A model generated the notes under the pieces. That model made no database searches. It was not told the DNA's origin and was given only the letters and a program-made list of their open reading frames with translations. This document shows positions 18,641 through 42,986 of a stretch of DNA of 44,643 nucleotides, piece by piece. The position numbers and the translations under genes are program-made. Source of the stretch: an uncultured Janthinobacterium sp. (GTDB lineage Bacteria > Vulcanimicrobiota > Vulcanimicrobiia > Vulcanimicrobiales > Vulcanimicrobiaceae); assembly GCA_964658025.1 (NCBI GenBank), contig CAZZXB010000005.1, forward strand, positions 1 through 44,643, written 5' to 3'. Within the stretch, counting starts at the first letter, position 1, and each line of letters starts with the position of its first letter.

Positions 18641-18646
18641 ACGGAG

Positions 18647-22168: not shown

Positions 22169-22833
22169 GCGTCTCCGAGCGTGCCGACCGCGAACAGCGG
22201 CTCGCCAACGCGAGCGCCGTCGTCGATCGTTGCCGGAAGTGCGCGATCGGGTCCACGCGGCGCAACGCCGTGTACGGCGAGGGCGATCCGTGCGCCGACC
22301 TTCTCGTGATCGGCGAGGGCCCGGGCGAAACCGAGGACGAGCTCGGGCGTCCGTTCGTTGGCCGTGCCGGCGCGCTACTCGACAAGATGTTGCTCGCGAT
22401 CGCGCTCCCGCGCGAGGACGTCTACATCTGCAACACGGTGAAGTGCCGACCGACGTTCGACGACGGCGTGCGCTTGAAGAACCGCGCGCCGACGCCGGAA
22501 GAGATGGATCACTGCCGTGCGTATCTCGACGAACAGATCGCGGTCGTGCGTCCGAGAGCGATCCTCTGCCTCGGGGCGCCGGCGGCGAAAACGTTCCTCG
22601 GACCGAAATTTTCGATCTCGCGCCAGCGCGGGCAATGGTTCGCGGGCCCGGGCGATCTCCCGCTGATCGCGACCTTCCATCCCGCGTATCTCTTGCGAAT
22701 GACGGGCGGCGAACTCGAAGCGACGAAGCGGCTCGTCTGGAACGATCTCAAAGCGATCCGCGCGAAGCTCGACGAACCGCCCGCGCCGCCGCCGGAGCCC
22801 GAAATCGCGCAAGGCTCGCTCTTCGATCCGTGA
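22165..22833 (+). CDS. udg: Uracil-DNA glycosylase, family 4
   Basis: 'CRKCAIGSTRRNAVYGEGDPCADLLVIGEGPGETEDELGRPFVGRAGALLDKML', 'YICNTVKCRP' and 'ATFHPAYLLR' are family-4 UDG signatures. The GTG start overlaps the upstream stop (GTGA). Confidence 0.9.
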   Translation: MSVSERADREQRLANASAVVDRCRKCAIGSTRRNAVYGEGDPCADLLVIGEGPGETEDELGRPFVGRAGALLDKMLLAIALPREDVYICNTVKCRPTFDDGVRLKNRAPTPEEMDHCRAYLDEQIAVVRPRAILCLGAPAAKTFLGPKFSISRQRGQWFAGPGDLPLIATFHPAYLLRMTGGELEATKRLVWNDLKAIRAKLDEPPAPPPEPEIAQGSLFDP

Positions 22834-22848
22834 TATACTTCGGAAACG

Positions 22849-23955
22849 GTGAATTTGCGGGCACGAGACGTTTGGTTCGACGACAAGGCACGACGCGCGG
22901 GCTGTGACGACGGGGTCGCTTTCGCAACCCGGCACGCGCTCAAACCCTATCGGCTCGACCAACTCTACCACGCGGCGACGAAGGAACTCGCGCCCGATCT
23001 CGATGCGGTGACGGTGCTCCCGCGCGACCTGCGCGCGACGCTTGCGGCCGAGGGCTTCGCGCTCGAATCGGTCGAGCCGGTCCTCCTGCAACGCTCGAGC
23101 GACGGGCAGACGACGAAGGGCCTCTTCCGCCTCCACGACGGGAGCGAAGTCGAAGCCGTGCTCATGGAGCATTGGGGCGGTCGGACGACCGTCTGCATCT
23201 CGAGCCAAGCCGGGTGCGCCTACGCGTGCACGTTCTGCTCGACGGGGCAGGCCGGGTTCACGCGCAATCTCACGTCGGTCGAGATCTTCGATCAGGCGCG
23301 CTTCTTCGAACGCGAACTGCGCACGCGCAATAAGAAGATCACGAACGTCGTGTTCATGGGTCAGGGCGAACCGTTCGCCACGTGGGATTCGGTCATGGGA
23401 GCGGTGCGGCTCTTCAACGATCCGACGGGCTTCGGTCTCGGCCACCGCCACATCACGATCTCGACCGTCGGACTCGTCCCGCAGATACGACGCTTCGCCG
23501 ACGAAGGTTCGCAGGTGAATCTCGCGATCTCGCTCCACGCGCCGACGGACGAACAGCGCGGCAAGATCATGCCCGTCAATCGCAAGCACCGCATCGCCGA
23601 ATTGATGGATGCCTGCGCGTATTACGTCGACAAGACGAACCGCAAGGTCTTCTTCGAATACGTCATGCTCGACGGCGTGAACGACGACGACGACTCCGCC
23701 CGCGCGCTCGGTGCGTTACTGCGCCCGCGGGCCCGGCTCTATCACGTCAACCTGATCCCGTACAACGTCACGCCCGACGCGCCGTTACAGGGGACGCCGG
23801 ACGCACGCATTCGCGCGTTCCAGAAGATCCTCGACGCCGCGGGGATTCCGACGACGGTCCGAACGCCGATGGGCCGCGACATCGCGGCCGCCTGCGGCCA
23901 GCTCCGCGCGCAGACGCAACCGAAGGCGAAGAACGCGGCGGCACTGTCCGTTTAG
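22849..23955 (+). CDS. rlmN: 23S rRNA/tRNA adenine-C2 methyltransferase RlmN (radical SAM)
   Basis: 'CISSQAGCAYACTFCSTGQAGFTRNL', 'NVVFMGQGEPF', 'ITISTVGLVP', 'LAISLHAP' and 'AACGQL' near the C-terminus. 368 aa. Confidence 0.93.
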   Translation: MNLRARDVWFDDKARRAGCDDGVAFATRHALKPYRLDQLYHAATKELAPDLDAVTVLPRDLRATLAAEGFALESVEPVLLQRSSDGQTTKGLFRLHDGSEVEAVLMEHWGGRTTVCISSQAGCAYACTFCSTGQAGFTRNLTSVEIFDQARFFERELRTRNKKITNVVFMGQGEPFATWDSVMGAVRLFNDPTGFGLGHRHITISTVGLVPQIRRFADEGSQVNLAISLHAPTDEQRGKIMPVNRKHRIAELMDACAYYVDKTNRKVFFEYVMLDGVNDDDDSARALGALLRPRARLYHVNLIPYNVTPDAPLQGTPDARIRAFQKILDAAGIPTTVRTPMGRDIAAACGQLRAQTQPKAKNAAALSV

Positions 23956-23974
23956 TCTGTTTTGGTAGATCGCG

Positions 23975-24460
23975 ATGACTCAAGAACTCAGCTCGAAAAT
24001 GACCTATGTTGTCGCACAACTATTTTTTACGGAGACGTGTGCGCGGACGAAATCAGAAGATCTGCTGACGCTCGCGTCGGGGATGTTATTGAGTCTCGAC
24101 GGAGAGCGAAGCGGAGATCCCGCGATGATCTACGATTGGGCGGGCGTCGTCGGAAGCCGAACCTACTTTACCAGGCTCACGGGGTTTATCGTGACGAGAG
24201 AATATCTCGAAAACTGGTATGCGATCGGTCCGCAACCTGAAATCAGAGCGGTTATTGATTCCATGTCGGTCGACGCCGATGGCGAACCGCTCGATGCAAC
24301 CGTACGGGCCGAATGGAATTCGAGCTGGGAACGAGTCTTAGATAACCTTCACGCACGCACGCCGTTTATTTCGGCACATTGGCCGGGGACGGGTCCTCAA
24401 GGCAGATCGGGAAGTGCTGAATGGACGCCCGCTAATAGTTATGAATTCATCGAGGATTGA
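23975..24460 (+). CDS. Hypothetical acidic protein (161 aa), an orphan in a low-GC islet
   Basis: It is the only long ORF with plausible composition in 23956-24511. Codon usage is visibly A/T3-richer than the neighbours. I recognise no family or motif. An alternative start is the ATG at 23999. Confidence 0.5.
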   Translation: MTQELSSKMTYVVAQLFFTETCARTKSEDLLTLASGMLLSLDGERSGDPAMIYDWAGVVGSRTYFTRLTGFIVTREYLENWYAIGPQPEIRAVIDSMSVDADGEPLDATVRAEWNSSWERVLDNLHARTPFISAHWPGTGPQGRSGSAEWTPANSYEFIED

Positions 24461-24511
24461 CGCGATCGCGAGCGTCGATGCCGCAAGCGCCGTTGCCGTG
24501 CTGACTCTGCT

Positions 24512-25681
24512 ATGTGGATGACGCGCGCATCTTCGCTCGTCGCGCTCGCGTTTGCGGCGCGGGGGGCGAAATTTCCGGCGAGTTGGTTCGATATTCCGCT
24601 CGTGCGCGAGGCTCCGGCGGAGGCGCTGCCCAGCGTTTCGATCGTGGTGCCGGCGCGGGATGAGGAGCGGTCGATCGAACGGTGCGTGCGGTCGCTCTGC
24701 ACGCAGCGGTTCGTCGATGCGGAGGTGATCGTCGTCGACGACCGGTCGACGGATCGAACGTCCGAGATTCTCGCGCGACTCGCGGATGAGTATTCGAACC
24801 TTCGGATCGTGACGGGCGAGCCGCTACCCGACGGTTGGGTCGGAAAGCCGTGGGCGCTCGTGCAGGGCGAACGGATCGCGCGCGGTGCGTGGCTGCTCTT
24901 CACCGATGCGGATTCGGTCCACGCGCCGGAGGGCACGGCGTCGGCGCTCGCGTTCGCGCGGCTGATCGACGTCGATGCGGTCACGATCGTCACGCATCAG
25001 GAACTCGGCACGCTCGCGGAGCGCGCGACGTTGCCGTTCATCCTCGGGATGATCTTCTACGCCTCGGGGACGCTCGAACAACTCAACGATCCGATGCAGC
25101 CCGAGCGCGCGCTCGCGAACGGCCAGTACATCCTCGTCCGGCGCGACGCGTACGACGCGCTCGGCGGCCATACCGCGCTGCGCGCGGAGCTCGTGGAAGA
25201 CGTGGCGTTCGCGCGACGGATCAAGGCGGACGGCCGATTCCGGCTCGCGATCGGCGGCGGCTCGGAGCTCGCGAGCGTGCGGATGTATCAGTCGCTCCCC
25301 GAGATCTGGAACGGCTTCACGAAAAATCTCTTCATCGGGGCCGACGGCAACGTGGGCGTCTTGTTCTTGGGTGTCGCGTTCACGGCGGCGCTCGCCGCAC
25401 CGCCGCTCCTCGCGGCACGCGCGATCGCCCGTAAACGCTGGCTCGAAGCGCTCGAGGCGACGGCCGCAACGGCCCTGCTCGTCATCGCGTCGCGCCGCGG
25501 CATCGCGATGGTCGGACTTCCCCCGTCGACGGCGCCGCTCGCCTTTTTCGGAAGCGCGTTCTTCGGCGCGGTGGCGCTCAACTCGGCGCTCTGCGTCGCG
25601 AGCGGACGCGGCGTGAGCTGGCGCGGACGTCGCTATTCGGGGAGGCCGCAGCGGCAGGCGGACCTAAACGCACCGCAATGA
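24512..25681 (+). CDS. Glycosyltransferase family 2 with a C-terminal membrane domain (resembles the HpnB / carotenoid-glycosyltransferase class)
   Basis: 'VSIVVPARDEERSI', 'VIVVDDRSTDRT', 'PLPDGWVGKPWALVQG' and 'LLFTDADSVHAP', plus hydrophobic C-terminal helices. There are no hpn or crt neighbours, so the substrate is unassigned. Confidence 0.8.
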   Translation: MWMTRASSLVALAFAARGAKFPASWFDIPLVREAPAEALPSVSIVVPARDEERSIERCVRSLCTQRFVDAEVIVVDDRSTDRTSEILARLADEYSNLRIVTGEPLPDGWVGKPWALVQGERIARGAWLLFTDADSVHAPEGTASALAFARLIDVDAVTIVTHQELGTLAERATLPFILGMIFYASGTLEQLNDPMQPERALANGQYILVRRDAYDALGGHTALRAELVEDVAFARRIKADGRFRLAIGGGSELASVRMYQSLPEIWNGFTKNLFIGADGNVGVLFLGVAFTAALAAPPLLAARAIARKRWLEALEATAATALLVIASRRGIAMVGLPPSTAPLAFFGSAFFGAVALNSALCVASGRGVSWRGRRYSGRPQRQADLNAPQ

Positions 25682-27015
25682 TGACGGAGAAAACCGGCGT
25701 TACGATGGAAGAGATCACCGCGCTCGCGAAGCGGCGCGGTTTCATCTTCGGATCGAGCGAGATCTACGGCGGCATCAACGGATTCTTCGATTACGGCCCG
25801 CTCGGCGCGATCCTCAAGCGCAACGTGAAGGACGCGTGGTGGCGCGACATGGTCGAGATGCGCGACGACGTCGTGGCGTTCGATTCCTCGATCATCATGC
25901 ATCCGAACACCTGGGTCGCTTCGGGCCACGTCGCGGTCTTCCACGACAAGCTCGTCGACTGCACGAACTGCAAGCATCGTTTCCGCGCGGATCATCTCGC
26001 GTCGCTCGAACAATGCCCCGACTGCGGAATGCGGAACACGCTCACCGAGCCGCGGAACTTCAACCTCATGATGTCGACGGCGGTCGGGCCGATGGAGGAT
26101 TCCGCGTCGCGCGCGTACCTGCGGCCGGAGACGGCTCAGGGCATGTTCGTCAACTTCAAGAACGTCTACCAGACGGCGCGCGTGAAGCCGCCGTTCGGCA
26201 TCGCGCAGATCGGGAAATCGTTCCGGAACGAGATCACGCCCGGCAACTTCACGTTCCGCGTGCGCGAGTTCGAACAGGCCGAGCTCGAGTTCTTCGTCCC
26301 CGACGACGGCAACGATCTCAAGTGGTACGACGAGTGGGTCGTCGCGCGCAAAAAATGGTACAGCGATTACGGAATTCGCGAGGAGCGGCTCCGCTTCTAC
26401 GAACTCAAAGATAACGAACGGCCGCACTACGCGAAGGCGGGCACGGACGTCGAGTATCTCTTCCCGTGGGGTTGGGGCGAACTCGAATCGATCGCGCATC
26501 GCGGCACCTACGACCTCGACGCGCACATGAAGCTCTCGGGCAAGGATCTCTCGTTCTTCGACGAGGCGTCGAAGTCGCGGTACACGCCGATCCTCATCGA
26601 GAGTTCGGCCGGGATGGATCGGACGACGCTCACGATGCTCGTCGATGCGTACGAGAACGAGACGACGGTCGATCCGGAATCGGGGAAAGAGACGAAGCGC
26701 GTCGTGCTCCACTTCCATCCCAAGATCGCGCCCGTGCAGGTCGGCATCTTCCCGCTCGCGCGCAACAAATCCGAACTCGTCGACCGCGCTCGTAACATCG
26801 AACGCGGCTTACGGCCGCATTTCCGCACGACGTACGACGAAGGCAACGTCGGACAGCTCTACCGGCGTCAGGACGAGATCGGTACGCCGTACTGCATCAT
26901 GGTCGATTACGAGTCGCTCGACGACGCGTCCGTCACGGTGCGCGAGCGCGATTCGATGCGTCAGGAACGCGTCTCCGTCGAGGCCCTCCGGACGTACCTC
27001 ACCGAACGCCTGTAA
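25678..27015 (+). CDS. glyQS: Glycine--tRNA ligase (homodimeric GlyQS type, class II)
   Basis: 'ITALAKRRGFIFGSSEIYGGINGFFDYGPLG', 'LRPETAQGMFVNF', 'GKSFRNEITPGNFTFRVREFEQAELEFF' and a C-terminal anticodon-binding domain. The ATG overlaps the upstream stop (ATGA). The alternative start is the ATG at 25705. Confidence 0.95.
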   Translation: MMTEKTGVTMEEITALAKRRGFIFGSSEIYGGINGFFDYGPLGAILKRNVKDAWWRDMVEMRDDVVAFDSSIIMHPNTWVASGHVAVFHDKLVDCTNCKHRFRADHLASLEQCPDCGMRNTLTEPRNFNLMMSTAVGPMEDSASRAYLRPETAQGMFVNFKNVYQTARVKPPFGIAQIGKSFRNEITPGNFTFRVREFEQAELEFFVPDDGNDLKWYDEWVVARKKWYSDYGIREERLRFYELKDNERPHYAKAGTDVEYLFPWGWGELESIAHRGTYDLDAHMKLSGKDLSFFDEASKSRYTPILIESSAGMDRTTLTMLVDAYENETTVDPESGKETKRVVLHFHPKIAPVQVGIFPLARNKSELVDRARNIERGLRPHFRTTYDEGNVGQLYRRQDEIGTPYCIMVDYESLDDASVTVRERDSMRQERVSVEALRTYLTERL

Positions 27016-27027
27016 GCGGGCGCGCGC

Positions 27028-28161
27028 GTGCACGTGGTGTTCGTCGGACAGAGCGGTTCGAGTGCGGGCGGCGCCGAGCGGAGCATGCAACTACTGCTCT
27101 CGCATCTGCCCGAGCGGATCGCGTTCACGGTCGTGCTCTTCGAGGACGGTGCGTACGCGGACGAACTGCGCGGTCGCGGCTTCGCCGTCGAAGTCGTCCC
27201 GCTCGATTCGGGCGTGATGGGCGTCCAGCGCGAACGTCTTCCCATCTCCGCGGCGGCGGGATCGGTCGCGATGGTGCGCCGCTTGATCTCCGCGTTCCGC
27301 CGCCTCGCTCCCGACGTCGTCTACACGAACACCGTGAAGGCGCACGTGCTCGGGACGATCGCCGCGCGGCTCGCCGGCTTCCGGAGCGCGATGCATCTGC
27401 GCGACATCCTCGACGGGCGCGGACGCGACGTCCTGCGCGTCGTCGCTCGCACGTGCGCGAAACGGCGCATCGCGATCTCGCACGCCGTCGCGAACGCGCT
27501 CGCGGTTCCGCCGACGGAGGTCGTTCCGAATCCGCTCGATCTTGCCGAGTACGAGCGTCTCCCCGCGCGCGAGGCCGCCCGCGACGAACTCGGCCTCCCG
27601 CGCGACGTGCCGATCGTCGGCATCATCGGCCGGATCAATCGCTGGAAGGGCCACGACCGGTTCCTGCGCTCGATGGCGTTCGTCGCGAAACATTCGGGCG
27701 CGCATTTCGCGATCGTCGGCAAGCCGATGTTCCGCGACGCCGATTTCGTCGGCGAACTCGAGACGCTCGCCGCGTCGCTCGGCATCGGAGCGCGCGTCCA
27801 CTTCGTCCCGTGGCTCGAGGATCCGCGCGTCGCGTACGCCGCCTTCGACGTGAACTGTAACGCCTCGCACGAAGAACCGTTCGGTCGCACGATCATCGAA
27901 GCGGCCGCGTGCGGCGTGCCGACCGTGTGTTACGCGGAAGGCGGCGCGCCCGAAGCCGTCGCCGATCGCGAGAGCGGTCTCGTCGTCGCGGCGGGCGACG
28001 AGCGCGCGTTCGGCGGCGCCGTGCTCGAGCTCTTACTCGCCGATCGCGACGCGGTCGCACGACGGTGTCGCGCGCACGCGCGCACGTTCGATGCGGGGCT
28101 ACACGCCGAGCGTATCGCCGCGATCCTCGACGGTATGGTGGGAAAGAACGGCCATGTCTGA
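27028..28161 (+). CDS. Glycosyltransferase family 4 (GT-B, GT1/GT4 type)
   Basis: 'MHVVFVGQSGSSAGGAERSM', 'RINRWKGHD' and the C-terminal 'EEPFGRTIIEAAACGVPTV...GGAPEAV' (EX7E-like region). Confidence 0.85.
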   Translation: MHVVFVGQSGSSAGGAERSMQLLLSHLPERIAFTVVLFEDGAYADELRGRGFAVEVVPLDSGVMGVQRERLPISAAAGSVAMVRRLISAFRRLAPDVVYTNTVKAHVLGTIAARLAGFRSAMHLRDILDGRGRDVLRVVARTCAKRRIAISHAVANALAVPPTEVVPNPLDLAEYERLPAREAARDELGLPRDVPIVGIIGRINRWKGHDRFLRSMAFVAKHSGAHFAIVGKPMFRDADFVGELETLAASLGIGARVHFVPWLEDPRVAYAAFDVNCNASHEEPFGRTIIEAAACGVPTVCYAEGGAPEAVADRESGLVVAAGDERAFGGAVLELLLADRDAVARRCRAHARTFDAGLHAERIAAILDGMVGKNGHV

Positions 28162-29260
28162 GGGACCGAAGATCGCGATCGTCTCCGACCCGCTCGTGCA
28201 ACGCGGCGGCGCCGAACGGATCGTCGAGGCGCTCGCGGAGGCGTTTCCGAGCGCGCCCGTGTTCGCGTTACTCTATTCGGCCGAGACCGGGCCCGCGAGC
28301 ATCGCGGATCGGGTCCGCGCGTCGTGGCTCAATTCCGTCCCGCAGGCGACGAAACGGCACCGGCTGTTCTTTCCGTTCTATCGCGCGGCGATCGAATCGC
28401 TCGACGTCTCGGATTACGACGTGATCGTCTCGTCGCATCATACGGTCGGCAAGGGCGTCCTCACGCGCGCGGATCAGGTCCACGTCTCGTACTGCCACAC
28501 GCCGATGCGCGCGCTCTGGGAGCGCAGCGTCGCCGAATTGCAGACGCTCCCCGCGATCGCGCGGCCGCCCGTGGCCGCGCTCTTCTCGCACCTGCGCGTA
28601 TGGGACGTGGTGACCGCCGCGCGCGTGCAGAAGTTCGTCGCGAACAGCCGCACGACCCAGCGTCGGATCGCGACGTACTACCGCCGCGAGAGCGAACTCG
28701 TGTTTCCGGCGATCGATACCGAACGCTTCACGCCCGGCGGCGAGGTCGGCGATTACTATCTCGTCGCGTCGCGGCCGGTTCCGTACAAACGCGTCGACAT
28801 CGCGGTCGACGCCACGCGCCGGCTCGGGCGCGAGCTCGTCGTCGTCGGCGGTCTCCACGCGATGGGCAGCGACGTCCCCGCGCACGTCACGGCGCTCGGC
28901 CACGTCTCCGATACGGAATTGCGCGACCTCATGCGCGGCGCGCGCGCGCTGCTCTTCCCGCAATACGAGGACTTCGGGATGACGCCGCTCGAGGTCAACG
29001 CGTGCGGTCGGCCGGTGATCGCCTACGGCGCGGGCGGCGCGCTCGATACGGTGATCGACGGCGAGACGGGCATCCTCGCGTCCGAACAGAGCGTCGGAAG
29101 CTTCGTCGATGCGATCGAGCGTTTCGAGCGCGCGACGTTCGATGCCGAACGCGTCCGCGCGCACGCGCTCGCCTTCTCGCGCGATCGCTTCATCGATCGG
29201 ATGCGGGAGATCGTCGCACGTGCGTGGGTCGAACGCGGCCGGGCTTCGCCCAACGTGTGA
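28154..29260 (+). CDS. Glycosyltransferase family 4 (GT-B)
   Basis: 'KIAIVSDPLVQRGGAERIVEAL', 'YKRVDIAVDA' and 'EDFGMTPLEVNACGRPVIAYGAGGALDTV'. The start is set at the ATG at 28154, which overlaps the upstream gene by 8 nt. The track ORF from 28091 is over-extended. Confidence 0.85.
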   Translation: MSEGPKIAIVSDPLVQRGGAERIVEALAEAFPSAPVFALLYSAETGPASIADRVRASWLNSVPQATKRHRLFFPFYRAAIESLDVSDYDVIVSSHHTVGKGVLTRADQVHVSYCHTPMRALWERSVAELQTLPAIARPPVAALFSHLRVWDVVTAARVQKFVANSRTTQRRIATYYRRESELVFPAIDTERFTPGGEVGDYYLVASRPVPYKRVDIAVDATRRLGRELVVVGGLHAMGSDVPAHVTALGHVSDTELRDLMRGARALLFPQYEDFGMTPLEVNACGRPVIAYGAGGALDTVIDGETGILASEQSVGSFVDAIERFERATFDAERVRAHALAFSRDRFIDRMREIVARAWVERGRASPNV

Positions 29261-29344: not shown

Positions 29345-30655
29345 ATGAGAGCAATGCAGATTCAGCGCGTGATCGAATCCGTCCGACGCGTTCTCGCGGT
29401 CGCCAGCGTCGCGATCGTGGTCGCCGGATGCGCGCATCGCGGCGGCGCGAAGGGCGGCCGGGCGGGGCGCGCGGCGGCCTCGCCGCCGCCGATCGCAACG
29501 ACGCAAGCGAAGACGCAGACGATCCATCCGACGCTGACGCTCGCGGGCATCATCGCTCCGTATCAGAACGTGGCGATCACGGCCTCGCTTTCGGAACCGA
29601 CGCTCCGCGTCAACGTGAACGAGGGCGATACCGTCCATGCGGGCGAGGTGCTCGCCGTCCAAGACGTGACCGATCTGCAGGCCAACCTCGAGGCGCAGAA
29701 CAGCCTCGCGCAGTCCGACGACGCGCGGATCGCGCAGAGCAAGTACACGGCCGATCTCAATTACGGTCAGAATCCCGATGCCGTGCGGCAGCAGCGCGCG
29801 AACCTCCGGCAGGCGCAGCACACGCTCGCGCAGGCGAAGATCGATCTCGCGCGGGACAAAGACCTCGCCTCGAACGGCTACATCTCGGACCAGATCTACG
29901 TCCAACAGCAGACGACCGTCGCGAACGACGAGCAATCCGTCCGTTCCGCGGCGGCGGCGCTGTCGTCGGCACAAACCAATAACGACATCAACGGCTCGCC
30001 GACGCGTAACGGCTTGCAATCGGCGAACATCGACTCGGCGGTCGCCTCCGCGGCCTCGGCTCGCGCTCAGGCCGATCAGATCAAGGCGCAGATCTCGCGC
30101 GCGACGATCGTCTCGCCCGTCGACGGCGTCGTGGTCAACCGCAACCTCAATCCGGGCGAGTATCCCGGCGGCCGCACGGCGTTCACGATCCAAGAGATCT
30201 CGAAGGTGTATGCCATCCTCAACGCCTCGAGCGCCGACGTCTTCCGCATCTCGAACGGTGCCGCGGTCGGCGTGACGGCCGGCGACGACCGCAGCGGTCG
30301 CAAGTACGATGGGACGGTCGTCGGCGTCCTCGGGCAGGTGCAGCCCGGCTCGACGAACTTCACGGTCAAGGCGGTGCTCGCGAATCCCGGGAACCGCCTG
30401 CAATCCGGGATTCCCGTGACCGCGACGATCGCGCTCGCGCCGATCACGGGCGTCGCGGTTCCGGCGACGGCATTTCTCGACGACTCGCACGGATCGCTCG
30501 TCGTCGATCGCGGCGGAAACGCGGCGGTCGCGAACGTCCGCGAACTCGGAACGTCGGGCAACACGTCGATCGTCTCGGGGATCGACGAAGGGACGACCGT
30601 CGTCTCGAACGGTCAGCTCGGGATCACGAACGGGCAGAAACTCGGCGCGCGATAG
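29345..30655 (+). CDS. Efflux RND periplasmic adaptor (membrane fusion protein, HlyD/AcrA family), probable lipoprotein
   Basis: Signal peptide ending in the lipobox 'VVAGC'. A lipoyl-like hairpin 'VNVNEGDTVHAGEVLAVQD', a coiled-coil stretch (QANLEAQ...LRQAQHTLAQAKIDLARDKDL), 'IVSPVDGVVVNRNLNPGEY' and beta-barrel/MP domains follow. Confidence 0.88.
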   Translation: MRAMQIQRVIESVRRVLAVASVAIVVAGCAHRGGAKGGRAGRAAASPPPIATTQAKTQTIHPTLTLAGIIAPYQNVAITASLSEPTLRVNVNEGDTVHAGEVLAVQDVTDLQANLEAQNSLAQSDDARIAQSKYTADLNYGQNPDAVRQQRANLRQAQHTLAQAKIDLARDKDLASNGYISDQIYVQQQTTVANDEQSVRSAAAALSSAQTNNDINGSPTRNGLQSANIDSAVASAASARAQADQIKAQISRATIVSPVDGVVVNRNLNPGEYPGGRTAFTIQEISKVYAILNASSADVFRISNGAAVGVTAGDDRSGRKYDGTVVGVLGQVQPGSTNFTVKAVLANPGNRLQSGIPVTATIALAPITGVAVPATAFLDDSHGSLVVDRGGNAAVANVRELGTSGNTSIVSGIDEGTTVVSNGQLGITNGQKLGAR

Positions 30656-30692
30656 TGACGCTCGTGGGTCGCGCTAACCGCGGGATGCGCGC

Positions 30693-33600
30693 GTGTCGCT
30701 GACGCGGCTCTTCGTCCGCCGTCCGACGCTCGTCGTCGTCGTGCTCGCGCTCGTCGCGATCGCGGGCGTGCTCGCGTTCGCGGGGCTCGTCCAGCAGAAT
30801 TTTCCGAACATCGATTTTCCGACGATCCAGGTCCGCACGTCGTATGCGGGCGCGTCGCCGAGCGAGATCCGCGACGCGATCGTCAAGCCGATCGAAGACG
30901 CGATCGCGGGCGCGCCGAACCTCGACCACCTCACGACGAACATCCAGTCGGGTCAGGCGACGATCACCGCGACCTTCGAACTCGGCTCGGATCAGACGAG
31001 CGATCTCGTGGAAGTCCAACGCCGCGTCGAATCGACGCGCTCGGTCCTTCCGACCGATCTCACCGCGCCGACGATCGGGTCGTTCGATCCCGCGCAGACG
31101 GTGGTGGCGACGTATTCGGTCACCTCGACGTCGCTCACGCAAGCCGAGCTCTCGGCGATCGTCACCAATAATATCGTACCGGAGATCGAACAGGTCGACG
31201 GCGTCTCGAACGTCAACGCGGGCGGGACGGTCACGCCGTCGATCCAAGTCGAAGTCGATCCGCACAAGCTCGACGCGACGCAGTTCACGCTCGGCGACAT
31301 CGTGACGTCGATCTCGAGCAATAACGTCCGCGCGCCGGGCGGCATCGCGTACGGTTCCGATCGCGAGACGTCCGTCGACGTGCGCGGCGACGTGACCGAT
31401 CCGCTCAGCGTCGCGATGCTCCCGATCTTTTCGTCGGCCGGCGGCACGGGCGCCGCAACGCTCACGGGACCGCAGGGCGGCACGGGATTGCAGAGTCCGG
31501 CGAACAGCACCGGCACGTCCGCCGCGACTTCGAGCGCGGTCGCCGGGGGCTCGTCGTCGACGACCTCCGCCGCGACCTCCACCGCTTCGAATTCGACGAC
31601 CTCGAGCACGTCGAGCACGTCGACGGGCTCGACGCTCTCGACCTCGACGACCGTCAACGGAACGACCGCCGCGAGCGCCTCGAATTCGTCGGCGACGAAC
31701 GCGTCGGCCGCGACCTCGAGTCAGACGACCGCCACGTCCGTCGGCGCGAGCACGCCGTCCGCGACCGCGACGTCGGCCGCACAATCCGCTTCGAACGGGG
31801 CGAGCACGGCCACGACCGGTTCGTCGTCGGGATCGTCCGCGACGGGCTCGACCTCGACGCAATCCGGATCCTCGAACGCGAACGGCTCCTCCGGAAGCGC
31901 GATCTCGGTCACCACGGGATCGTCGAGCACGCTCTCGAGCGGATCGGCCTCGACCGCGACCGGCGGGAATACCACGACGAGTTCGGGTGCCCGTGCGAGC
32001 GCGACGATCGCACCCGTCTCGCCGCAGAACGTGACGACGGGCTCGTCGACGTCGACGACCGTGCAGACCGGCGCCACGAGTTCGCCGTCGCCTTCGAGCG
32101 ATACCGCGTCGTCGACCGCGGGGAGCAACGCGTCCGACGCGATCTCGTTTACGAACGGGTCGAGCGCGGGCGCGACGTCGTCGACGGATAGCTCGAACGC
32201 GGGCTCGTCGGGCTCGTCGTCGGGGAGCACCACTTCGACCTCGTCGTCGGGGAGCACGACCTCGACCTCGTCGTCGGGATCGAGTTCGTCGTCGCTCTCG
32301 AGTCTCAACCCGTGGAGCGTGTCGTCGCGCATCTATCGGATCGCCGACGTCGCGCGCGTATACGCGGGGTTCGAGATCAAGCGCGTGTTCGGCTACATCG
32401 GCGCGGGCCCCGCGATCACGCTCTCGGTGCAGAAGGCGACGGGCGCGAGCGAGATCACCGCGTCGCGCAACGTGCAGGCGGCGATTCCGGCGATCTCGCG
32501 CGAGTATCCGCAGCTCGCGATCGCGCCGCTCAACATCCAAGCCGACTACACCCAGCAACAGCTCGACAGCGTCTACCGCTCGCTCGCCGAAGGCATCCTC
32601 TTCACGGGCATCGTGATGATGTTCTTCCTACGCTCGTGGCGCAACGCGATCGTCGTGTTGATCGCGATCCCGTCGTCGTTACTCGTCACGCTCTTCGTGA
32701 TGCGGCTCGCGAACTTCACGATCGATACGATCTCGCTCCTCGCGATGACGCTCGTGATCGGCATCCTCGTCGACGATTCGATCGTCGTGCTCGAGAACAC
32801 CGAACGCCATTACGAAGACGGCGAGGCGCCGCAGACGGCCGCGATCCTCGGCCGCACGGAGATCGGTCCGGCGGCGATCGTCATCACGCTCGTCGACGTC
32901 GTCGTGTTCTTGCCGGTCGCGTTCTTACCCGGGACGGTCGGGCGTTTTCTCGCGGAGTTCGGGCTCGTCGTCGTCGTCGCGACGCTCACGTCGCTCGCCG
33001 TCTCGTTCACCATCACGCCGGCGCTCGCCGGCAACTGGTCGTTGCTCTCGAAGTGGAAGACCCCGTGGATCGTCGATCGGTTCACGGCCGCGTTTCACGC
33101 GACGCGACGCTTCTACGTCGAGCGCGTCCTCGATTGGGCGCTCGGACACAAGTTCGTCGTCGCCGCCGTATCGTTGCTGCTCGTCGTCGGATCGATCTCG
33201 CTCGTGCCGCTCGGCTTCGTCGGATTCGAATTCATCCCGGCGGTCGATCGCGGCGAGATCTTCCTGCAACTCACGTTTCCGACCGGGACGCCGCTCGCGA
33301 CGACGAACGCCGCGATCGCCCGCCTCTCGAAACAGATCGGCGCGTATCCCGACGTGAAGCGGCTCACGGGGACCGCGGGATCGTATCAGTCGGGCTTCGG
33401 CGGCAACCTCGCCGAAGGTTCGGTCGGACAGATCCACGTGTTCTTGGTCGACAACCCCAAGCGCACGACGTTGCAGTGGGTGACGCAACTCAACAAGCTC
33501 GCGACGCGCGAGTATCCGGGCGCGAAACCCGCGGCGATCCCGGCGACCGGGACGGGCGGCGGCAACGCGCAACCGATCGATTACGTCATCACCTCCAACG

Positions 33601-34709
33601 ACGATCAACCCGAGAAGTACGCGCCGCAGATCCTCGACGCGCTCAAGAAGACGCCCGGCACGCTCAATCCCAACGACTCGCTCGCGAACCTCCAACCGCA
33701 GGTCGACGTCACCTTCGATCGGGAGCGCGCGCGCGCGCTCGGCATCGATATCGCGACCGCGGCGAACGCCGTACGCGCGTCGTTCGGCGGCACGCAGGCC
33801 GCGCAGTTCGAGACGTCGCTCGGCACGCAATACGTCCAAGTGACGTATCCGCAGAGCGCGCAGACGTCGACGACGTCGATCGCCGATATTCCGATCCGCA
33901 CGCGCGCGGGCAACCTCGCCTACGTCGGCGACGTGGCGCATCTCGTCGAGAATCCGACGTCGCCGCTCATGTCGCGCGTGAACCGGCAGACCGTCGTCCA
34001 CCTGAGTTCGAACGTCCAGCCGGGCTTCGTGCAGTCGAACGTGCAGAACGATTTTCTCAAGCGCGTCGACGCGCTGCATCTGCCCGCGGGCGTGCAGATC
34101 GGCCCGAATGCCGGCGGTCAGGCGCAGAATCTCGGCGAGACGGTCAACGGGCTCGTCGCCTCGTTACTGCTCTCGTTCGCGCTCGTCTATCTCCTGATGG
34201 TCGCGCTCTACGATAGCTATCGCCTGCCCTTCATCATCATGTTCGCGATCCCGGTCGCGGCGGTCGGCGCGGTCGGCGCGCTCGCGCTCACCGGACAATC
34301 GCTCAACCTCTTCTCTCTGATCGGAACGGTCATGCTCGTCGGGCTCGCCTCCAAGAACGGAATCTTGCTCGTCGATTTCGCGAACCATCGCTTGCGGCGC
34401 GGCATCGATCGCTACGCGGCGATCCGCGAGAGCGCGATGGAGCGCTTCCGTCCGATCGTGATGACGACGTTCTCGATGATCGCGGGGATGACGCCGATCG
34501 CGCTCGCCCTCGATCCCGGCTCCGCGACGCGTCGGTCGCTCGGCATCGTCGTGATCGGCGGACTCGTGAGCTCGCTCGTCCTCACGTTGCTCATCGTTCC
34601 CGTCGCCTTCGTGTGGTTCGCGCCGCGTCACGCGACGCCGGAACCGACCGACGACGACGACACGGCGCGGCCCGCGCTGCAGCCCGGAATGGCGGGAGTT
34701 TCCTCATGA
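30693..34709 (+). CDS. RND efflux permease (AcrB/MdtB-like, HAE1-type) with a low-complexity periplasmic insertion of about 290 aa; 1338 aa
   Basis: 'RRPTLVVVVLALVAIAG', 'VLIAIPSSLLVTLFVM', 'LLAMTLVIGILVDDSIVVLENTERH' and a second-half repeat 'LIGTVMLVGLASKNGILLVDFA'. It is collinear with the downstream paralog except at residues about 247-538. GTG start. Confidence 0.93.
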   Translation: MSLTRLFVRRPTLVVVVLALVAIAGVLAFAGLVQQNFPNIDFPTIQVRTSYAGASPSEIRDAIVKPIEDAIAGAPNLDHLTTNIQSGQATITATFELGSDQTSDLVEVQRRVESTRSVLPTDLTAPTIGSFDPAQTVVATYSVTSTSLTQAELSAIVTNNIVPEIEQVDGVSNVNAGGTVTPSIQVEVDPHKLDATQFTLGDIVTSISSNNVRAPGGIAYGSDRETSVDVRGDVTDPLSVAMLPIFSSAGGTGAATLTGPQGGTGLQSPANSTGTSAATSSAVAGGSSSTTSAATSTASNSTTSSTSSTSTGSTLSTSTTVNGTTAASASNSSATNASAATSSQTTATSVGASTPSATATSAAQSASNGASTATTGSSSGSSATGSTSTQSGSSNANGSSGSAISVTTGSSSTLSSGSASTATGGNTTTSSGARASATIAPVSPQNVTTGSSTSTTVQTGATSSPSPSSDTASSTAGSNASDAISFTNGSSAGATSSTDSSNAGSSGSSSGSTTSTSSSGSTTSTSSSGSSSSSLSSLNPWSVSSRIYRIADVARVYAGFEIKRVFGYIGAGPAITLSVQKATGASEITASRNVQAAIPAISREYPQLAIAPLNIQADYTQQQLDSVYRSLAEGILFTGIVMMFFLRSWRNAIVVLIAIPSSLLVTLFVMRLANFTIDTISLLAMTLVIGILVDDSIVVLENTERHYEDGEAPQTAAILGRTEIGPAAIVITLVDVVVFLPVAFLPGTVGRFLAEFGLVVVVATLTSLAVSFTITPALAGNWSLLSKWKTPWIVDRFTAAFHATRRFYVERVLDWALGHKFVVAAVSLLLVVGSISLVPLGFVGFEFIPAVDRGEIFLQLTFPTGTPLATTNAAIARLSKQIGAYPDVKRLTGTAGSYQSGFGGNLAEGSVGQIHVFLVDNPKRTTLQWVTQLNKLATREYPGAKPAAIPATGTGGGNAQPIDYVITSNDDQPEKYAPQILDALKKTPGTLNPNDSLANLQPQVDVTFDRERARALGIDIATAANAVRASFGGTQAAQFETSLGTQYVQVTYPQSAQTSTTSIADIPIRTRAGNLAYVGDVAHLVENPTSPLMSRVNRQTVVHLSSNVQPGFVQSNVQNDFLKRVDALHLPAGVQIGPNAGGQAQNLGETVNGLVASLLLSFALVYLLMVALYDSYRLPFIIMFAIPVAAVGAVGALALTGQSLNLFSLIGTVMLVGLASKNGILLVDFANHRLRRGIDRYAAIRESAMERFRPIVMTTFSMIAGMTPIALALDPGSATRRSLGIVVIGGLVSSLVLTLLIVPVAFVWFAPRHATPEPTDDDDTARPALQPGMAGVSS
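31431..32306 (+). repeat. In-frame low-complexity Ser/Thr/Gly/Ala(Asn)-rich coding insertion inside the RND permease
   Basis: The translation 'SSAGGTGAATLTGPQGGTGLQSPANSTGTSAATSS...GSSSGSTTSTSSSGSTTSTSSSGSSSSSLSSL' has essentially no charged or aromatic residues. The paralog has only about 25 residues ('LLLTGGASSSGSTLGTDVFSTQN') at the same position. Confidence 0.9.
32214..32280 (+). repeat. 27-nt tandem repeat, about 2.5 copies (TCGTCGTCGGGGAGCACSACYTCGACC), encoding SSSGSTTST units
   Basis: Unit 1 (32214-32240) and unit 2 (32241-32267) differ at 2 of 27 positions. A third, partial unit follows. Read directly from the sequence. Confidence 0.85.
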
Positions 34710-37700
34710 GCATCACCGCGCTCTTCGTCAAACGACCCACGCTCGTCACGGTGCTCATCGCGCTCGTGCTCCTCGCCGGGACGCTCTCGGCGTTCGCGCT
34801 CGTGAAGCAACAGTTCCCGAATTACGACGTTCCGACCGTGCAGGTACTCGTGACGTATCCGGGCGCGTCGACGACGGAGCTGCGCGACGCGATCGTGCGC
34901 CCGCTCGAAGATCAGATCGCGGGCGCGCCCGATCTCCAAACGATCGAGACGGCGATCCAACCGGGGCAGGCCTCGCTCGTCGTGCGCTTCACGCTCGGTT
35001 CCGACGTCAACAGCGATCTCGTGCAGACGCAGGGTCGCGTGCAGAATGCCCAGCGGAGTCTTCCGAGCGATCTCCAGACGCCGACCGTCTCGATCTACGA
35101 TCCCGCGCAGGCCGTCGTCGTCTCGCTCGTCGCGAGTTCGACGACGCTGGCGCCCGGCGCGCTCTCGTCGCTCGTCACGAACAAGGTCGTCCCGGCGCTC
35201 GAACAGGTTCCCGGCGTCTCGTACGTCGTCTCGAACGGCGCGGTGACGCCGTCGATCCAAGTCGCCGCGGACCCGCGCGCGCTCTCCGCGCGGAGCCTCA
35301 CGCTCACCGACATCACCTCCGCGATCTCGAGCAACAACGTCCGCGCGCCGGGCGGGATCGCGTACGGTCGCGATCGCGAGACGAACATCGATATCCGCGG
35401 CGACATCACGGATCCGCTCTCGGTGTCGTCGCTCTTACTCACCGGCGGCGCGTCGTCGAGTGGGAGCACCCTCGGCACGGACGTCTTCTCCACGCAGAAT
35501 CGGTACTTCCGCATCGGCGACGTCGCGAACGTTACGGATACGTTCGAGCCGCAGCGCGTCTACGCGTACACGCACGGGCGTCCGTCGATCGCGCTCGACG
35601 TGCAGAAGGCGAGCGGGACGAGCGAGGTGACCGCGTCGCAGGCCGTGCTCGCCGCGCTCCCGGCGCTCCGGTCGCAGTATCCGAACATCGCGTTCGACGT
35701 GCTCAACGTCCAGGCGACGTACACGCAGGAGCAACTCTCGGGCGTCGTGCGGACGCTCGTCGAGGGGATCGTCTTCACGGGCATCGTGATGCTGTTCTTC
35801 CTGCGCTCGTGGCGCAACGCGGTCGTCGTGATGATCGCGATTCCGACGTCGCTCCTCGTCACGCTCGCCGCGATGCATCTCGCGAACTTCACGATCGACA
35901 CCGTCTCGCTGCTCGCCATGACGCTCATCATCGGGATCCTCGTCGACGACTCGATCGTCGTGCTCGAGAACATCGAACGCCACGCGGCGGACGGAGAAGA
36001 AGCCCAAGCGGCGGCGATCCGCGGACGGACGGAGATCGGCATCGCGGCGATCGTCATCACGCTCGTCGACGTCGTCGTCTTTCTCCCGATCTCGTTCTTG
36101 CCGGGGACGGTCGGACTGTTCTTGCGCGAGTTCGGACTCGTCGTCACGGTCGCGACGCTGACGTCGCTCTTCGTTTCGTTCACCGTCACGCCGGCGCTTG
36201 CGGGACGCTGGTCGCTCTTCTCGACCTGGCGTCCGTGGGGGATCGTCGATCGGTTCACCGCGTTCTTCGAACGCGTGCGCGAATGGTACGTCGCGCGCGC
36301 GCTCGCGTGGGCGCTCCGGCGTCCGCTGGTCGTGATCGGCGGCTCCGCGATCTTACTCGTGCTCGCGTTCGCGCTCATCCCGCTCGGTGTCGTCGGGTTC
36401 GAATACATCCCGCCCGTCCTCCGCGGCGAGGTGTACGTCACGGTGCAGTATCCCAACGGCACGCCGCTCGAAACGACGCGTAAGGGGATCCTCGCGGTCG
36501 AGCGCGTCGTGAACGAAGATCCGGGCGTGCAATCGGAGACGGCGCTCGCGGGCGCGTCCGAAGGGAATCTGCCGGGCTACGTCAACTCGGCGACGACGGG
36601 GCAGCTCCACGTGTTCCTCACGTCGGGCGCGGCGCGTTCGACGGCCGCGTGGAGCGCGAAGATCTCGACGAAGGCGCGCGACGCCGTTCCGGGCGCGACC
36701 GTCGTCGCGATCCCCGCGACGAACACGGAAGGCAACGTCCAGCAACCGATCGACGAAGTCGTCACGTCGACGGGCACGAAAGATCCCGACGCGTACGCGC
36801 AAACCGTGCAGGACGCGCTGGCGAACACGCCCGGTGCCGTCGACGTCACGACGTCCTCGACCGGACTCTCGCCGCAGGTCGACGTCGAGTTCGATCGCGA
36901 GCGCGCCCGCGCGCTCGGCGTCTCGATCGGAACCGCATCGACGACGATCCGCGCGGCGTTCGGCGGCGTGATCGCGACTCAATTCACCGGGACCGACGGG
37001 CTCAAGGACGTCCAGGTCATCTATCCGCAGGCCGATCAGACGAATCTCGCCGCGATCGCCGCGATCCCGATCCGCACGAGCGGCGGGAGCACGATCCACG
37101 TCGGCGACGTGGCGAAGCTCACGAACGCGCCGGCCCCGCCGATCATCGCGCGCATCAATCGTCGGAGCGTCGTCTACGTCGGCGCGAACGTCGCCGACGG
37201 CTCGCAGCTCTCGAACGTCCAGAACGCGTTCAACCGCCGCCTCGCGCGCCTGCATCTCCCGTCCGACATCACGGTGACGCCCGTCGTCGGCGGCAACCAG
37301 CAGAACGTGAGCGACACGATCGTCGGGATGAGCGTCTCGCTCGTGCTCTCGATCGCGCTCGTCTACCTGCTCATGGTCGCGCTCTACGATAGTTACCGGA
37401 CGCCGTTCGTCATCATGTTCAGCGTCCCGGTCGCCGTCGTCGGCGCGCTCGGCGCGCTCGCGCTCACGCATCAGACGCTCAACCTGTTCTCGTTCATCGG
37501 GTCGGTCTTACTGATCGGACTCGTCTCGAAGAACGGGATCCTGCTCGTGGATTTCGCCAACCGTTTGCGCCGCGAGGGACGCGACAAGCGCGAGGCCGTG
37601 ATCGAGAGCGCGCGCGAACGGTTCCGTCCGATCGTGATGACGACGCTCGCGATGATCGCGGGCATGCTCCCGCTCGCGCTCGCGCTCGATCCGGGTTCGG

Positions 37701-37894
37701 AAGCGGAGCGCTCGCTCGGAACCGTCGTGATCGGCGGCCTCTTGAGTTCGCTGCTCCTGACGTTACTGCTCGTGCCGATCGTCTACTTACGCTTCGCACC
37801 ACCGCCCCGCGCGGCCGAAGCCCCGGAGCCGCGGCGCGACGATCGCCGCCTGCCGAATCGCCCGTTACCGACGACGACGGGCGCGACGAAGTAG
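34706..37894 (+). CDS. RND efflux permease (AcrB/MdtC-like, HAE1-type); 1062 aa
   Basis: 'MSITALFVKRPTLVTVLIALVLLAG', 'LLAMTLIIGILVDDSIVVLENIERH' and 'LIGLVSKNGILLVDFANRLRREG'. The ATG at 34706 overlaps the upstream RND stop (ATGA). The track ORF from 34613 is over-extended. Confidence 0.93.
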   Translation: MSITALFVKRPTLVTVLIALVLLAGTLSAFALVKQQFPNYDVPTVQVLVTYPGASTTELRDAIVRPLEDQIAGAPDLQTIETAIQPGQASLVVRFTLGSDVNSDLVQTQGRVQNAQRSLPSDLQTPTVSIYDPAQAVVVSLVASSTTLAPGALSSLVTNKVVPALEQVPGVSYVVSNGAVTPSIQVAADPRALSARSLTLTDITSAISSNNVRAPGGIAYGRDRETNIDIRGDITDPLSVSSLLLTGGASSSGSTLGTDVFSTQNRYFRIGDVANVTDTFEPQRVYAYTHGRPSIALDVQKASGTSEVTASQAVLAALPALRSQYPNIAFDVLNVQATYTQEQLSGVVRTLVEGIVFTGIVMLFFLRSWRNAVVVMIAIPTSLLVTLAAMHLANFTIDTVSLLAMTLIIGILVDDSIVVLENIERHAADGEEAQAAAIRGRTEIGIAAIVITLVDVVVFLPISFLPGTVGLFLREFGLVVTVATLTSLFVSFTVTPALAGRWSLFSTWRPWGIVDRFTAFFERVREWYVARALAWALRRPLVVIGGSAILLVLAFALIPLGVVGFEYIPPVLRGEVYVTVQYPNGTPLETTRKGILAVERVVNEDPGVQSETALAGASEGNLPGYVNSATTGQLHVFLTSGAARSTAAWSAKISTKARDAVPGATVVAIPATNTEGNVQQPIDEVVTSTGTKDPDAYAQTVQDALANTPGAVDVTTSSTGLSPQVDVEFDRERARALGVSIGTASTTIRAAFGGVIATQFTGTDGLKDVQVIYPQADQTNLAAIAAIPIRTSGGSTIHVGDVAKLTNAPAPPIIARINRRSVVYVGANVADGSQLSNVQNAFNRRLARLHLPSDITVTPVVGGNQQNVSDTIVGMSVSLVLSIALVYLLMVALYDSYRTPFVIMFSVPVAVVGALGALALTHQTLNLFSFIGSVLLIGLVSKNGILLVDFANRLRREGRDKREAVIESARERFRPIVMTTLAMIAGMLPLALALDPGSEAERSLGTVVIGGLLSSLLLTLLLVPIVYLRFAPPPRAAEAPEPRRDDRRLPNRPLPTTTGATK

Positions 37895-38059
37895 GGCGAG
37901 GGCGACGTCCGGTTACCGCCACGTGTCCGCGCGCGACGATCCCGGCGAGCGTAGCGGACGTGGTCCGCGGCGCGCCGTCGACCGGCGATCTCTGGGCCGC
38001 GTCGAGTCGCGCGGCGAGGCTCGCGGAATCATCTCTCGCGCCGGCGAACGCGCTCCGCC

Positions 38060-38246
38060 ATGCGGGAATCTATCGTCAAGGAGTTCGATGCCGAGACCTA
38101 TCTCATGTGGGAATCGCGTCAGCGCGAGCGCTTCGAACTCCATTACGTGGTTCACGACGGTTTCCGAACGCGAGTCGATCCCACTCGGCAACGGCGCGCT
38201 AACGCTCGACGCCGTATACGCTCGCACGTCGCTCGCCGCTCCGTAA
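38060..38246 (+). pseudogene. Possible decayed remnant of a Uma2/DUF820-like gene (very tentative)
   Basis: 'FDAETYLMWESRQRERFELHYVVHDG' resembles Uma2-family N-termini. After an apparent frameshift, the adjacent frame ends '...ESIPLGNGALTLDAVYARTSLAAP', which resembles a C-terminus of that family. The whole region is far too short for an intact gene. Confidence 0.22.
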
Positions 38247-42913: not shown

Positions 42914-42986
42914 CCGTTTCTCGGATTCCTCACAGAGAGTTCCGGGATGATGAAAGTCGTACGACCCGCGGTCGATAAGGTGATTG

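Follow-up and report, generated by a model that had tools for sequence, protein, structure and literature searches.

Contig CAZZXB010000005.1 of assembly GCA_964658025.1 (44,643 nucleotides, referred to in its whole length as the window) encodes what appears to be an efflux cassette of one adaptor and two tandem RND permeases. The first permease, RND1, carries a long in-frame insert, also called the tract below, where the pump AcrB has a short turn. Sequence alignments show the insert to be periplasmic and to sit on the tip of the DN hairpin, on which the adaptor docks. Structure prediction describes it best as an uncharged, polar, intrinsically disordered loop. Judged by sequence comparison, the insert is a trait of this clade and is rare elsewhere. 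We lean towards a reading in which its conserved base modifies or joins the adaptor contact and its centre loops from the permease-adaptor seam into the periplasm, as a sequence-independent spacer or brush.

The insert in RND1

RND1 is an HAE1-type RND permease, as its profile match, fold and proton relay all fit. The Pfam profile ACR_tran (PF00873) matched RND1 with an E-value of 1e-210 and 702 bits (cutoff 28), in two stretches because the insert breaks the profile at position ~250. A phmmer search against PDB sequences returned AcrB, MexB, MdtB and OqxB (E 1e-80 to 1e-96). All five proton-relay residues (AcrB D407, D408, K940, R971 and T978) are identical in RND1 and in the downstream paralog RND2, and the DC vertical hairpin has a normal length in both. 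The features of RND1 and its insert are as follows.

30693..34709, + strand: RND1, HAE1-type RND permease with insert, 1338 aa (Pfam ACR_tran, PDB phmmer)
31431..32327, + strand: whole insert, aa 247-545, 299 aa, in frame; stands for the 7-residue AcrB DN hairpin tip V253-R259
31431..31565, + strand: conserved N-terminal base of the insert, aa 247-291, 'SSAGGTGAATLTGPQGGTGLQSPAN...TSAATSSAVAGG'; motif shared by homologs
31566..32291, + strand: hypervariable, low-complexity centre of the insert, aa 292-533; partly short in-frame tandem repeats (Tandem Repeats Finder, TRF; units of 9-27 nt)
31602..31623, + strand: 9-nt tandem repeat (TCGAGCACG, 2.4 copies; TRF), the site of a 9-nt in-frame deletion in a sister strain
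32213..32278, + strand: 27-nt tandem repeat with SSSGSTTST units (2.4 copies, 94% matches; TRF)
32292..32327, + strand: conserved C-terminal base of the insert, aa 534-545, '...SLSSLNPWSVSS'; runs into the returning hairpin strand RIYRIADVARV

The insert is bounded by '...SVAMLPIF' on the N side and 'RIYRIADV...' on the C side. RND1 and RND2 are collinear except at this site, where 299 aa stand against 19 aa. The initial annotation of this DNA, made without database searches, had described permeases of 1338 and 1062 aa that are collinear bar one tract, and both the open reading frame (ORF) sizes and the alignment agree. It had placed the tract at 31431-32306; the start is exact, and the end falls 21 nt short of 32327. 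Its estimate of ~290 residues in place of ~25 captured a large insert against a short loop, with the sizes themselves slightly off.

Ser (105 residues), Thr (63), Ala (44), Gly (35) and Asn (14) make up 87% of the insert, compared with 37.5% of the remaining RND1 protein, in line with the earlier description of a tract built almost only from these five. By percentage, the insert is 35% Ser, 21% Thr, 15% Ala and 3% Pro, and it contains four charged residues. In a six-frame scan of the window it was the sole long Ser/Thr tract without Arg. When ~101,000 residues of ORFs from Eremiobacterota were scanned, similar tracts turned up almost exclusively in genes of the RND1 type; this sample is biased, since its loci had been fetched around RND genes.

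Position of the insert on the RND fold

In a MAFFT alignment with E. coli AcrB, the insert takes the place of V253-R259 ('VNQDGSR'), between '...FGKILLK' and 'VLLRDVAKIELG', and four outgroup RNDs have 6-7 residues at the same site. The phmmer comparison with the PDB aligned RND1 residue 545 to AcrB 258. In AcrB a short, vertical beta-hairpin of the docking subdomain DN has its tip at this site (PMC4403515). Cryo-EM of AcrAB-TolC shows that S258 of the DN hairpin adjoins S273 in AcrA's beta-barrel domain, and this pair served for disulfide locking of the complex (PMC5404916). According to the same paper, the hairpin touches AcrA protomer II and is required for pump assembly, and at rest the pump has an open permease-adaptor seam (PMC5404916). 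The initial annotation had assigned the tract to the membrane-distal, adaptor-contacting surface of the periplasmic DN subdomain, and the AcrB alignment bears this out, with the hairpin tip near AcrA.

AlphaFold models are consistent with this placement, at the DN hairpin tip and not in a cytoplasmic loop. The model of P0027, an ortholog with a short insert of 66 aa, has a mean pLDDT (predicted local distance difference test) of 76, with residues 255-311 below 50. Foldseek matched it to AcrD, AcrB and AdeB with template modelling (TM) scores of 0.81-0.89. In the model of RND1 residues 1-1199, made from an alignment of 58 sequences, residues 253-544 have a pLDDT of 25-30 and no secondary structure, and the fold flanking the insert scores 80-90. 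Both models have the helix and strand pattern of 12 transmembrane helices and two large periplasmic loops.

Distribution and evolution of the insert

An insert of 45-303 aa occupies this site in each of the 120 best homologs. The initial annotation had pointed to related genomes for the presence and length variation of the tract; length does vary, and its occurrence in all of these homologs means that the tract is not peculiar to this gene. On the N side, homologs share the motif G(S)TGxAxLxGPxGGxG...TAATSxA. Most of them, whatever the length of their insert, have LNxWSV(S/A) on the C side, directly before the strand R..R[IV].DVA. Insert length follows phylogeny in a neighbour-joining tree of the cores, with these lengths by tree group.

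Basal lineages: 45-53 aa
Cybelea-like clade: 143-158 aa, Ala/Pro/Ser-rich
One pair: 210 aa
Baltobacteraceae-like clade: 60-73 aa
Clade of the window protein: 237-303 aa, with a nested 62-aa form (P0024)

As far as can be judged from sequence, this pattern calls for three or more expansions and probably a single contraction. The window insert is among the longest versions and is the richest in Ser and Thr; Cybelea-type inserts have 27-29% Ala and 14-15% Pro. Inserts of 143-303 aa contain 0-4 charged residues. Tracts of 237-303 aa are kept among orthologs with cores only 70% identical. The N-terminal base (45 residues) is 74-83% identical in three orthologs with cores at 75-80%, and 64% identical in a fourth, P0008. 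The centre is 75-85% identical, with indels, between orthologs with 95-97% identical cores. Where cores are 80% identical, it drops to 46%, with shuffled sequences giving 40%, and the N-terminal 45 residues are still 74-79% identical.

Loops of the RND2 type measure ~19-24 aa. Among 138 representative RNDs, taken from clusters at 50% identity, the median loop length is 5 aa, and 118 of the loops are shorter than 15 aa. The only representatives with loops above 100 aa are relatives at least 43% identical (P0123, P0126, P0128 and P0134) and one unrelated protein, P0145. We found no account in the literature of a disordered or low-complexity insert at the RND DN hairpin or docking domain, which agrees with the earlier remark that no characterised HAE1 pump was known to have such a tract.

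P0145 (L086 3426-7019, Logan SRR22387971) is a low-GC RND permease of 1197 aa and 33% identity. It has a Q/A/E/K-rich, coiled-coil-like insert of ~170 aa exactly at the same DN hairpin tip, which, from its sequence, may be an HAE1-type analogue of the coiled-coil appendage of MmpL5. A TetR gene lies directly upstream of P0145, and no adaptor gene was found at that locus. P0207, a distant RND of 1076 aa and 32% identity, has a 52-aa 'SSLG'-type repeat (residues 247-298) at the same hairpin tip, and low-complexity loops are also present there in P0133 (26 aa) and P0214 (23 aa). This turn has therefore undergone small, sporadic expansions outside Eremiobacterota as well.

The tract in a sister strain and in database entries

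L003 (ENA ERZ24794437 NODE_32), a separately assembled sister strain, is 99.2% identical to the window over 17 kb. Its counterpart of RND1 is a 1336-aa ORF with the same tract and an open frame. Two in-frame indels (-9 nt and +3 nt) distinguish the two tracts. They fall in the insert centre, and the gap of the first (31602-31610) lies exactly at the 9-nt tandem repeat. Misassembly or pseudogenisation of the tract is very unlikely on these sequences because the independent L003 assembly keeps it with an open frame. Codon usage points the same way: GC3, the GC content of third codon positions, is 0.886 both in the insert and in the rest of the RND1 gene, and TCG, ACG, GCG and GGC dominate inside and outside alike. 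The initial annotation had taken the tract for a native, in-frame expansion with genome-typical codons, a view upheld by these results.

GC-rich low-complexity DNA is error-prone in assembly, and some ortholog database entries have only 782-804 aa (for example P0301, 804 aa). Even so, we give an artefactual origin, by low-complexity misassembly or as a pseudogene, next to no probability. Besides the sister strain and the uniform codon usage, a single ORF spans the equivalent region in 120 of 120 best homologs, which come from many samples and several assemblers; disruption of the gene in relatives, named at the outset as a possible objection, is not seen among them. The short entries were considered as disrupted genes and dismissed on the one locus examined, L084 4573-8412, the source of P0301. 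Its 1280-aa ORF is uninterrupted, and the gene caller had taken antisense ORFs over the low-complexity part. In practice, then, the tract leads gene callers to shorten these genes in public databases, as checked at this locus.

Within the tract, 14 codons differ between the window and L003, 11 of them synonymously, and the remaining 1039 RND1 codons differ at four (p 8e-7 for the substitution excess of the tract within RND1). Over the whole shared 17 kb, the tract has 11 substitutions per 900 nt and other bins have 0-15. A very strong substitution excess was rejected on this comparison: against the 17-kb background the tract is only at the top of the range, and indels set it apart. It is the most variable 900-nt bin of the shared sequence mainly through them. 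Selection on composition could account for the 11 synonymous differences, as could a local rise in mutation or recombination or a mixed-strain assembly consensus. Relaxed constraint alone would give a lower synonymous share.

Possible roles of the insert

In the reading towards which we lean, RND1 would be the first of two translationally coupled tandem permeases that form, with a lipoprotein adaptor, an MdtABC-like efflux cassette. The DN hairpin tip of this first permease carries the lineage-specific insert, at the element that in AcrB touches the adaptor beta-barrel domain. The insert consists of a conserved base (~45 aa N-terminally, ~12 aa C-terminally) and a nearly charge-free, S/T/A/G-rich centre that is predicted to be disordered. 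Slippage of short in-frame repeats probably enlarged this centre from an ancestral ~45-70 aa to ~145 aa, 210 aa or 240-300 aa, depending on the sub-lineage. The conserved base may join in, or reshape, the contact with the adaptor. The floppy centre may loop out at the seam between permease and adaptor to the periplasm and act there as a steric or entropic spacer or brush, its exact sequence being immaterial. It may bear O-linked glycans and may tune pump assembly or its surroundings. The insert would not replace the outer-membrane partner.

Several observations weigh against this reading. The range of 45-303 aa and the 62-aa form of P0024, nested in the long clade, indicate that length is not strictly required. 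AlphaFold, run on the monomer with a shallow alignment, gave the conserved insert ends no structure in either RND1 or P0027, and an extended rigid beta-hairpin at the ends is unsupported by these models, though one may still form in the assembled complex. An RND1/RND2 heterotrimer is assumed by analogy only; conserved pairing and overlapping stop and start codons are only indirect hints at co-assembly. No outer-membrane factor gene was found near the cassette in the window and four other genomic contexts. This absence is uninformative because E. coli mdtABC also lacks an adjacent one. Two further points concern glycosylation. The tract has little Pro, and known O-oligosaccharyltransferases prefer Ala/Pro-rich regions. 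In addition, a run of GT2 and GT4 glycosyltransferase genes is linked to the cassette only in the window and the sister strain, and is absent from the relatives L001, L004 and L084.

The insert may instead, as the main alternative, be a neutral passenger, a permissive, solvent-exposed turn that was inflated by repeat slippage in a GC-rich genome and is tolerated while contributing nothing. We regard this as unlikely, though to be taken seriously. The centre is indeed fast-evolving and indel-rich, reaches shuffled-level identity once cores are 80% identical, contains short tandem repeats and differs by in-frame indels from the sister strain. The wide length range, the apparent contraction in P0024, the lack of predicted structure and the small expansions at the same turn in the distant P0207 (52 aa), P0133 (26) and P0214 (23) would also be expected of such a passenger. 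It explains less well why none of the 120 homologs falls below 45 aa, why the ends are conserved about like the core and why RND2, the paralog in the same operon, stays at ~19-24 aa. Charge is excluded throughout, with 0-4 residues in up to 303 aa, the tracts of 237-303 aa persist at 70% core identity, and of the 14 codons that differ from the sister strain, 11 do so synonymously. Moreover, the site is a functional contact in AcrB, where a passenger of 300 aa is not expected to be cost-free.

Two other explanations give the tract a direct part in the conduit. The tracts could point into the funnel or the adaptor duct as an uncharged polar plug, sieve or gate, or thread toward the outer-membrane channel. 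The hairpin lies at the funnel rim, below the adaptor beta-barrel ring, and a polar composition free of charge would suit a passive, gel-like filter. However, we estimate the volume of a 299-aa tract at ~3x10^4 cubic angstroms, so that two or three copies would nearly fill an AcrA-like duct and should block efflux; six-fold length variation among otherwise equivalent-looking orthologs is also hard to accommodate, and we hold this role to be improbable. The initial annotation had suggested a wall-spanning or glycosylated tether that would replace or modulate the outer partner. In its wall-spanning form the tether would stand in for the adaptor or the outer-membrane channel, as if the envelope had no outer membrane. 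Ser/Thr-rich linkers do cross monoderm cell walls, and an outer-membrane factor gene does not adjoin the cassette in the five genomic contexts, as is also true of E. coli mdtABC. Yet the phylum is diderm by electron microscopy of V. alpinus and by its lipopolysaccharide (LPS) and BamA genes (PMC9758169, PMC6664022). The adaptor is retained in full, with its helical hairpin and RLS tip motif, and a disordered chain cannot form a sealed conduit. We have accordingly set the wall-spanning tether aside as very improbable.

O-glycosylation of the tract is plausible by analogy. Low-complexity stretches in the periplasm, one in the adaptor MtrC among them, are modified on Ser by bacterial O-oligosaccharyltransferases (PMC9239064), and CmeABC is N-glycosylated with a functional effect (PMC7683400). 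A bolder version of the spacer reading would have the permease contribute a long, probably glycosylated polymer, with the base re-engineering the joint and the tract extending, like a leash or brush, to the adaptor tube, to the outer-membrane channel or to peptidoglycan. We consider this version quite unlikely. If true, pump assembly or gating would follow a mode that AcrAB-TolC does not show. On a wider view, the DN hairpin tip would then be a recurrent site for periplasm-spanning RND appendages, disordered here and coiled-coil-like in P0145.

Vulcanimicrobiaceae place 45-303 uncharged, predicted-disordered residues, in one of two paralogs, exactly at the DN hairpin, a contact on which assembly depends in the best-studied pump. 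Models derived from Proteobacteria therefore seem to understate how plastic the permease-adaptor joint is. The tandem permeases may be structurally non-equivalent and, if so, would offer a natural system for heteromeric RND assembly. A glycosylated or envelope-binding tract would be the first permease-borne periplasmic polymer in an HAE1 pump, and a neutral passenger would be merely a curiosity of low-complexity evolution. To those familiar with how AcrA and AcrB meet, the location is surprising. The pattern across the clade is clean, but low-complexity loops often prove to be of little consequence.

Organization of the efflux cassette

The other members of the cassette are the following.

29345..30655, + strand: periplasmic adaptor (membrane fusion protein), 436 aa; lipoprotein with lipobox VVAGC; Pfam HlyD_D23 and HlyD_3
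29852..29887, + strand: adaptor RLS hairpin-tip signature, R170-x3-L174-x6-S181, 'RDKDLASNGYIS' (regular-expression match)
34706..37894, + strand: RND2, tandem paralog, 1062 aa (ATG start at 34706); shares 57% identity with the RND1 core
35444..35500, + strand: RND2 loop at the site equivalent to the insert, 19 aa (GGASSSGSTLGTDVFSTQN)

The stop codon of RND1 and the start codon of RND2 overlap in ATGA. The order adaptor-RND1-RND2 recurs in 15 further Eremiobacterota loci (L001, L004-L008, L010, L011, L013, L014, L016, L017, L025, L029 and L084), with the insert-bearing RND first and the short-loop RND second. The insert was always in the first of the two tandem paralogs. Adaptor length, for which the extent of the tblastn match served as a proxy, had no obvious relation to insert length across loci.

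The RLS motif of adaptors has been named previously (PMC8277102). The signature in the window adaptor is in register with 'RYQKLLGTQYIS' of AcrA (R128/L132/S139) and with 'RYQQLAKTNLVS' of MdtA, and the adaptor ortholog of the sister strain has precomputed matches to HH_MFP_RND and BSH_RND. Given its helical hairpin and RLS signature, the adaptor looks built for docking an outer-membrane factor.

Some side observations concern related genes and the surroundings of the cassette. RND1- and RND2-type genes seem to be split over more than one reading frame in L014 and L025, which are long-read metagenome-assembled genomes from Microflora Danica; these are probably frameshift errors. In P0210 (1300 aa), the N-terminal ~260 residues resemble an HlyD-type membrane-fusion adaptor that would be fused to an RND permease in one polypeptide. 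An antisense ORF opposite RND1 (30624-32558, - strand, 644 aa) has no family match; we rejected it as a real gene and regard it as a side effect of TCG/ACG/GCG codon use. Downstream of RND2, L003 has ~2.1 kb (17202-19284) and the window ~0.25 kb (37899-38146), a strain-specific indel. The extra L003 DNA holds a Uma2-family gene and a 230-aa ORF without a family.

Comparison with known systems

RND1 resembles the AcrB/HAE1 pumps (AcrAB-TolC and MexAB-OprM) in its fold (TM-scores as given above), ACR_tran profile, proton relay and DN and DC hairpins, and in the adjacent lipoprotein adaptor with an RLS motif. It differs from AcrB in sequence (26% identity) and in the DN turn, which in AcrB has 7 aa and contacts AcrA.

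The gene order, an adaptor gene and then two tandem RND paralogs with no adjacent outer-membrane factor gene, is that of MdtABC, which forms an MdtB2C heterotrimer in Enterobacteria. A two-component system also lies beside the cassette in the relative L004, where a response regulator and a histidine kinase are found upstream, much as baeSR lies beside mdtABCD in E. coli. However, RND1 and RND2 are 27-30% identical to both MdtB and MdtC and 57% identical to each other, and are therefore, by sequence, not orthologs of MdtB and MdtC; this suggests a separate duplication. Unlike RND1, both MdtB and MdtC have short DN turns.

The nearest precedent for a large periplasmic RND insertion is the 196-aa coiled coil of MmpL5. 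MmpL5 and MmpL4 are HAE2 permeases of mycobacteria, and the MmpL5 insertion likewise points away from the membrane (PMC12501195). It is, however, a folded antiparallel coiled coil in PD2, which trimerises to a tube and is essential for efflux (PMC12501195). The RND1 insert instead belongs to the DN subdomain of loop 1, in another RND family, and is predicted to be disordered, with no predicted helix.

O-glycosylated low-complexity regions, such as the targets of PglO/PglL in Neisseria and those in Burkholderia, offer a further comparison, along with the glycosylated MtrC and CmeABC. Like these, the insert is an extracytoplasmic Ser/Ala-rich stretch in an efflux component of a diderm, and the Cybelea-type inserts are similar in being rich in Ala, Pro and Ser. 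The known targets are short, unlike the tract, and the window tract is poor in Pro. We know of no permease with a glycosylation-target region at the docking hairpin.

Host and genomic neighbourhood

The host is a soil bacterium of the phylum Eremiobacterota, family Vulcanimicrobiaceae. Named homologs come from Candidatus Baltobacteraceae, Vulcanimicrobiaceae, Candidatus Cybelea, Candidatus Velthaea and Eremiobacteraeota, and the NCBI taxonomy places all of these groups in the family Vulcanimicrobiaceae of the phylum Vulcanimicrobiota (= Eremiobacterota). Vulcanimicrobium alpinus, the sole cultured member, has an inner membrane, a thin peptidoglycan layer and an outer membrane covered with LPS (PMC9758169). 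Genes for LPS synthesis and for BamA are present in genomes of the phylum (PMC6664022).

The window is ordinary chromosome, with genes for FtsK, SecA, RF2, HisS, glycosyltransferases and others. Just upstream of the cassette (20766-29260), the genes GT2, GT2, GT4 and GT4 are interleaved with radical-SAM and HisS genes. We considered these neighbours as evidence for glycosylation of the tract and discarded them, since they do not adjoin the cassette in L001, L004 and L084.

At 10185-11528 (+ strand) lies a gene for a protein of the LytR-CpsA-Psr (LCP) family that contains a LytR_C domain. The LCP family is best known from monoderms, where it attaches glycopolymers to peptidoglycan; here it is present although the lineage is diderm Terrabacteria. 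At the other end of the window, a lipoprotein-like S8 subtilase (42984-44642, + strand) runs past the window end. It has a Thr/Pro/Ala-rich linker behind the lipobox Cys (ACGGGGGAPSTPGATPTPISTATAVPAATPTPTP), the one other low-complexity stretch of Ser/Thr type in a real reading frame of the window besides the RND1 insert.

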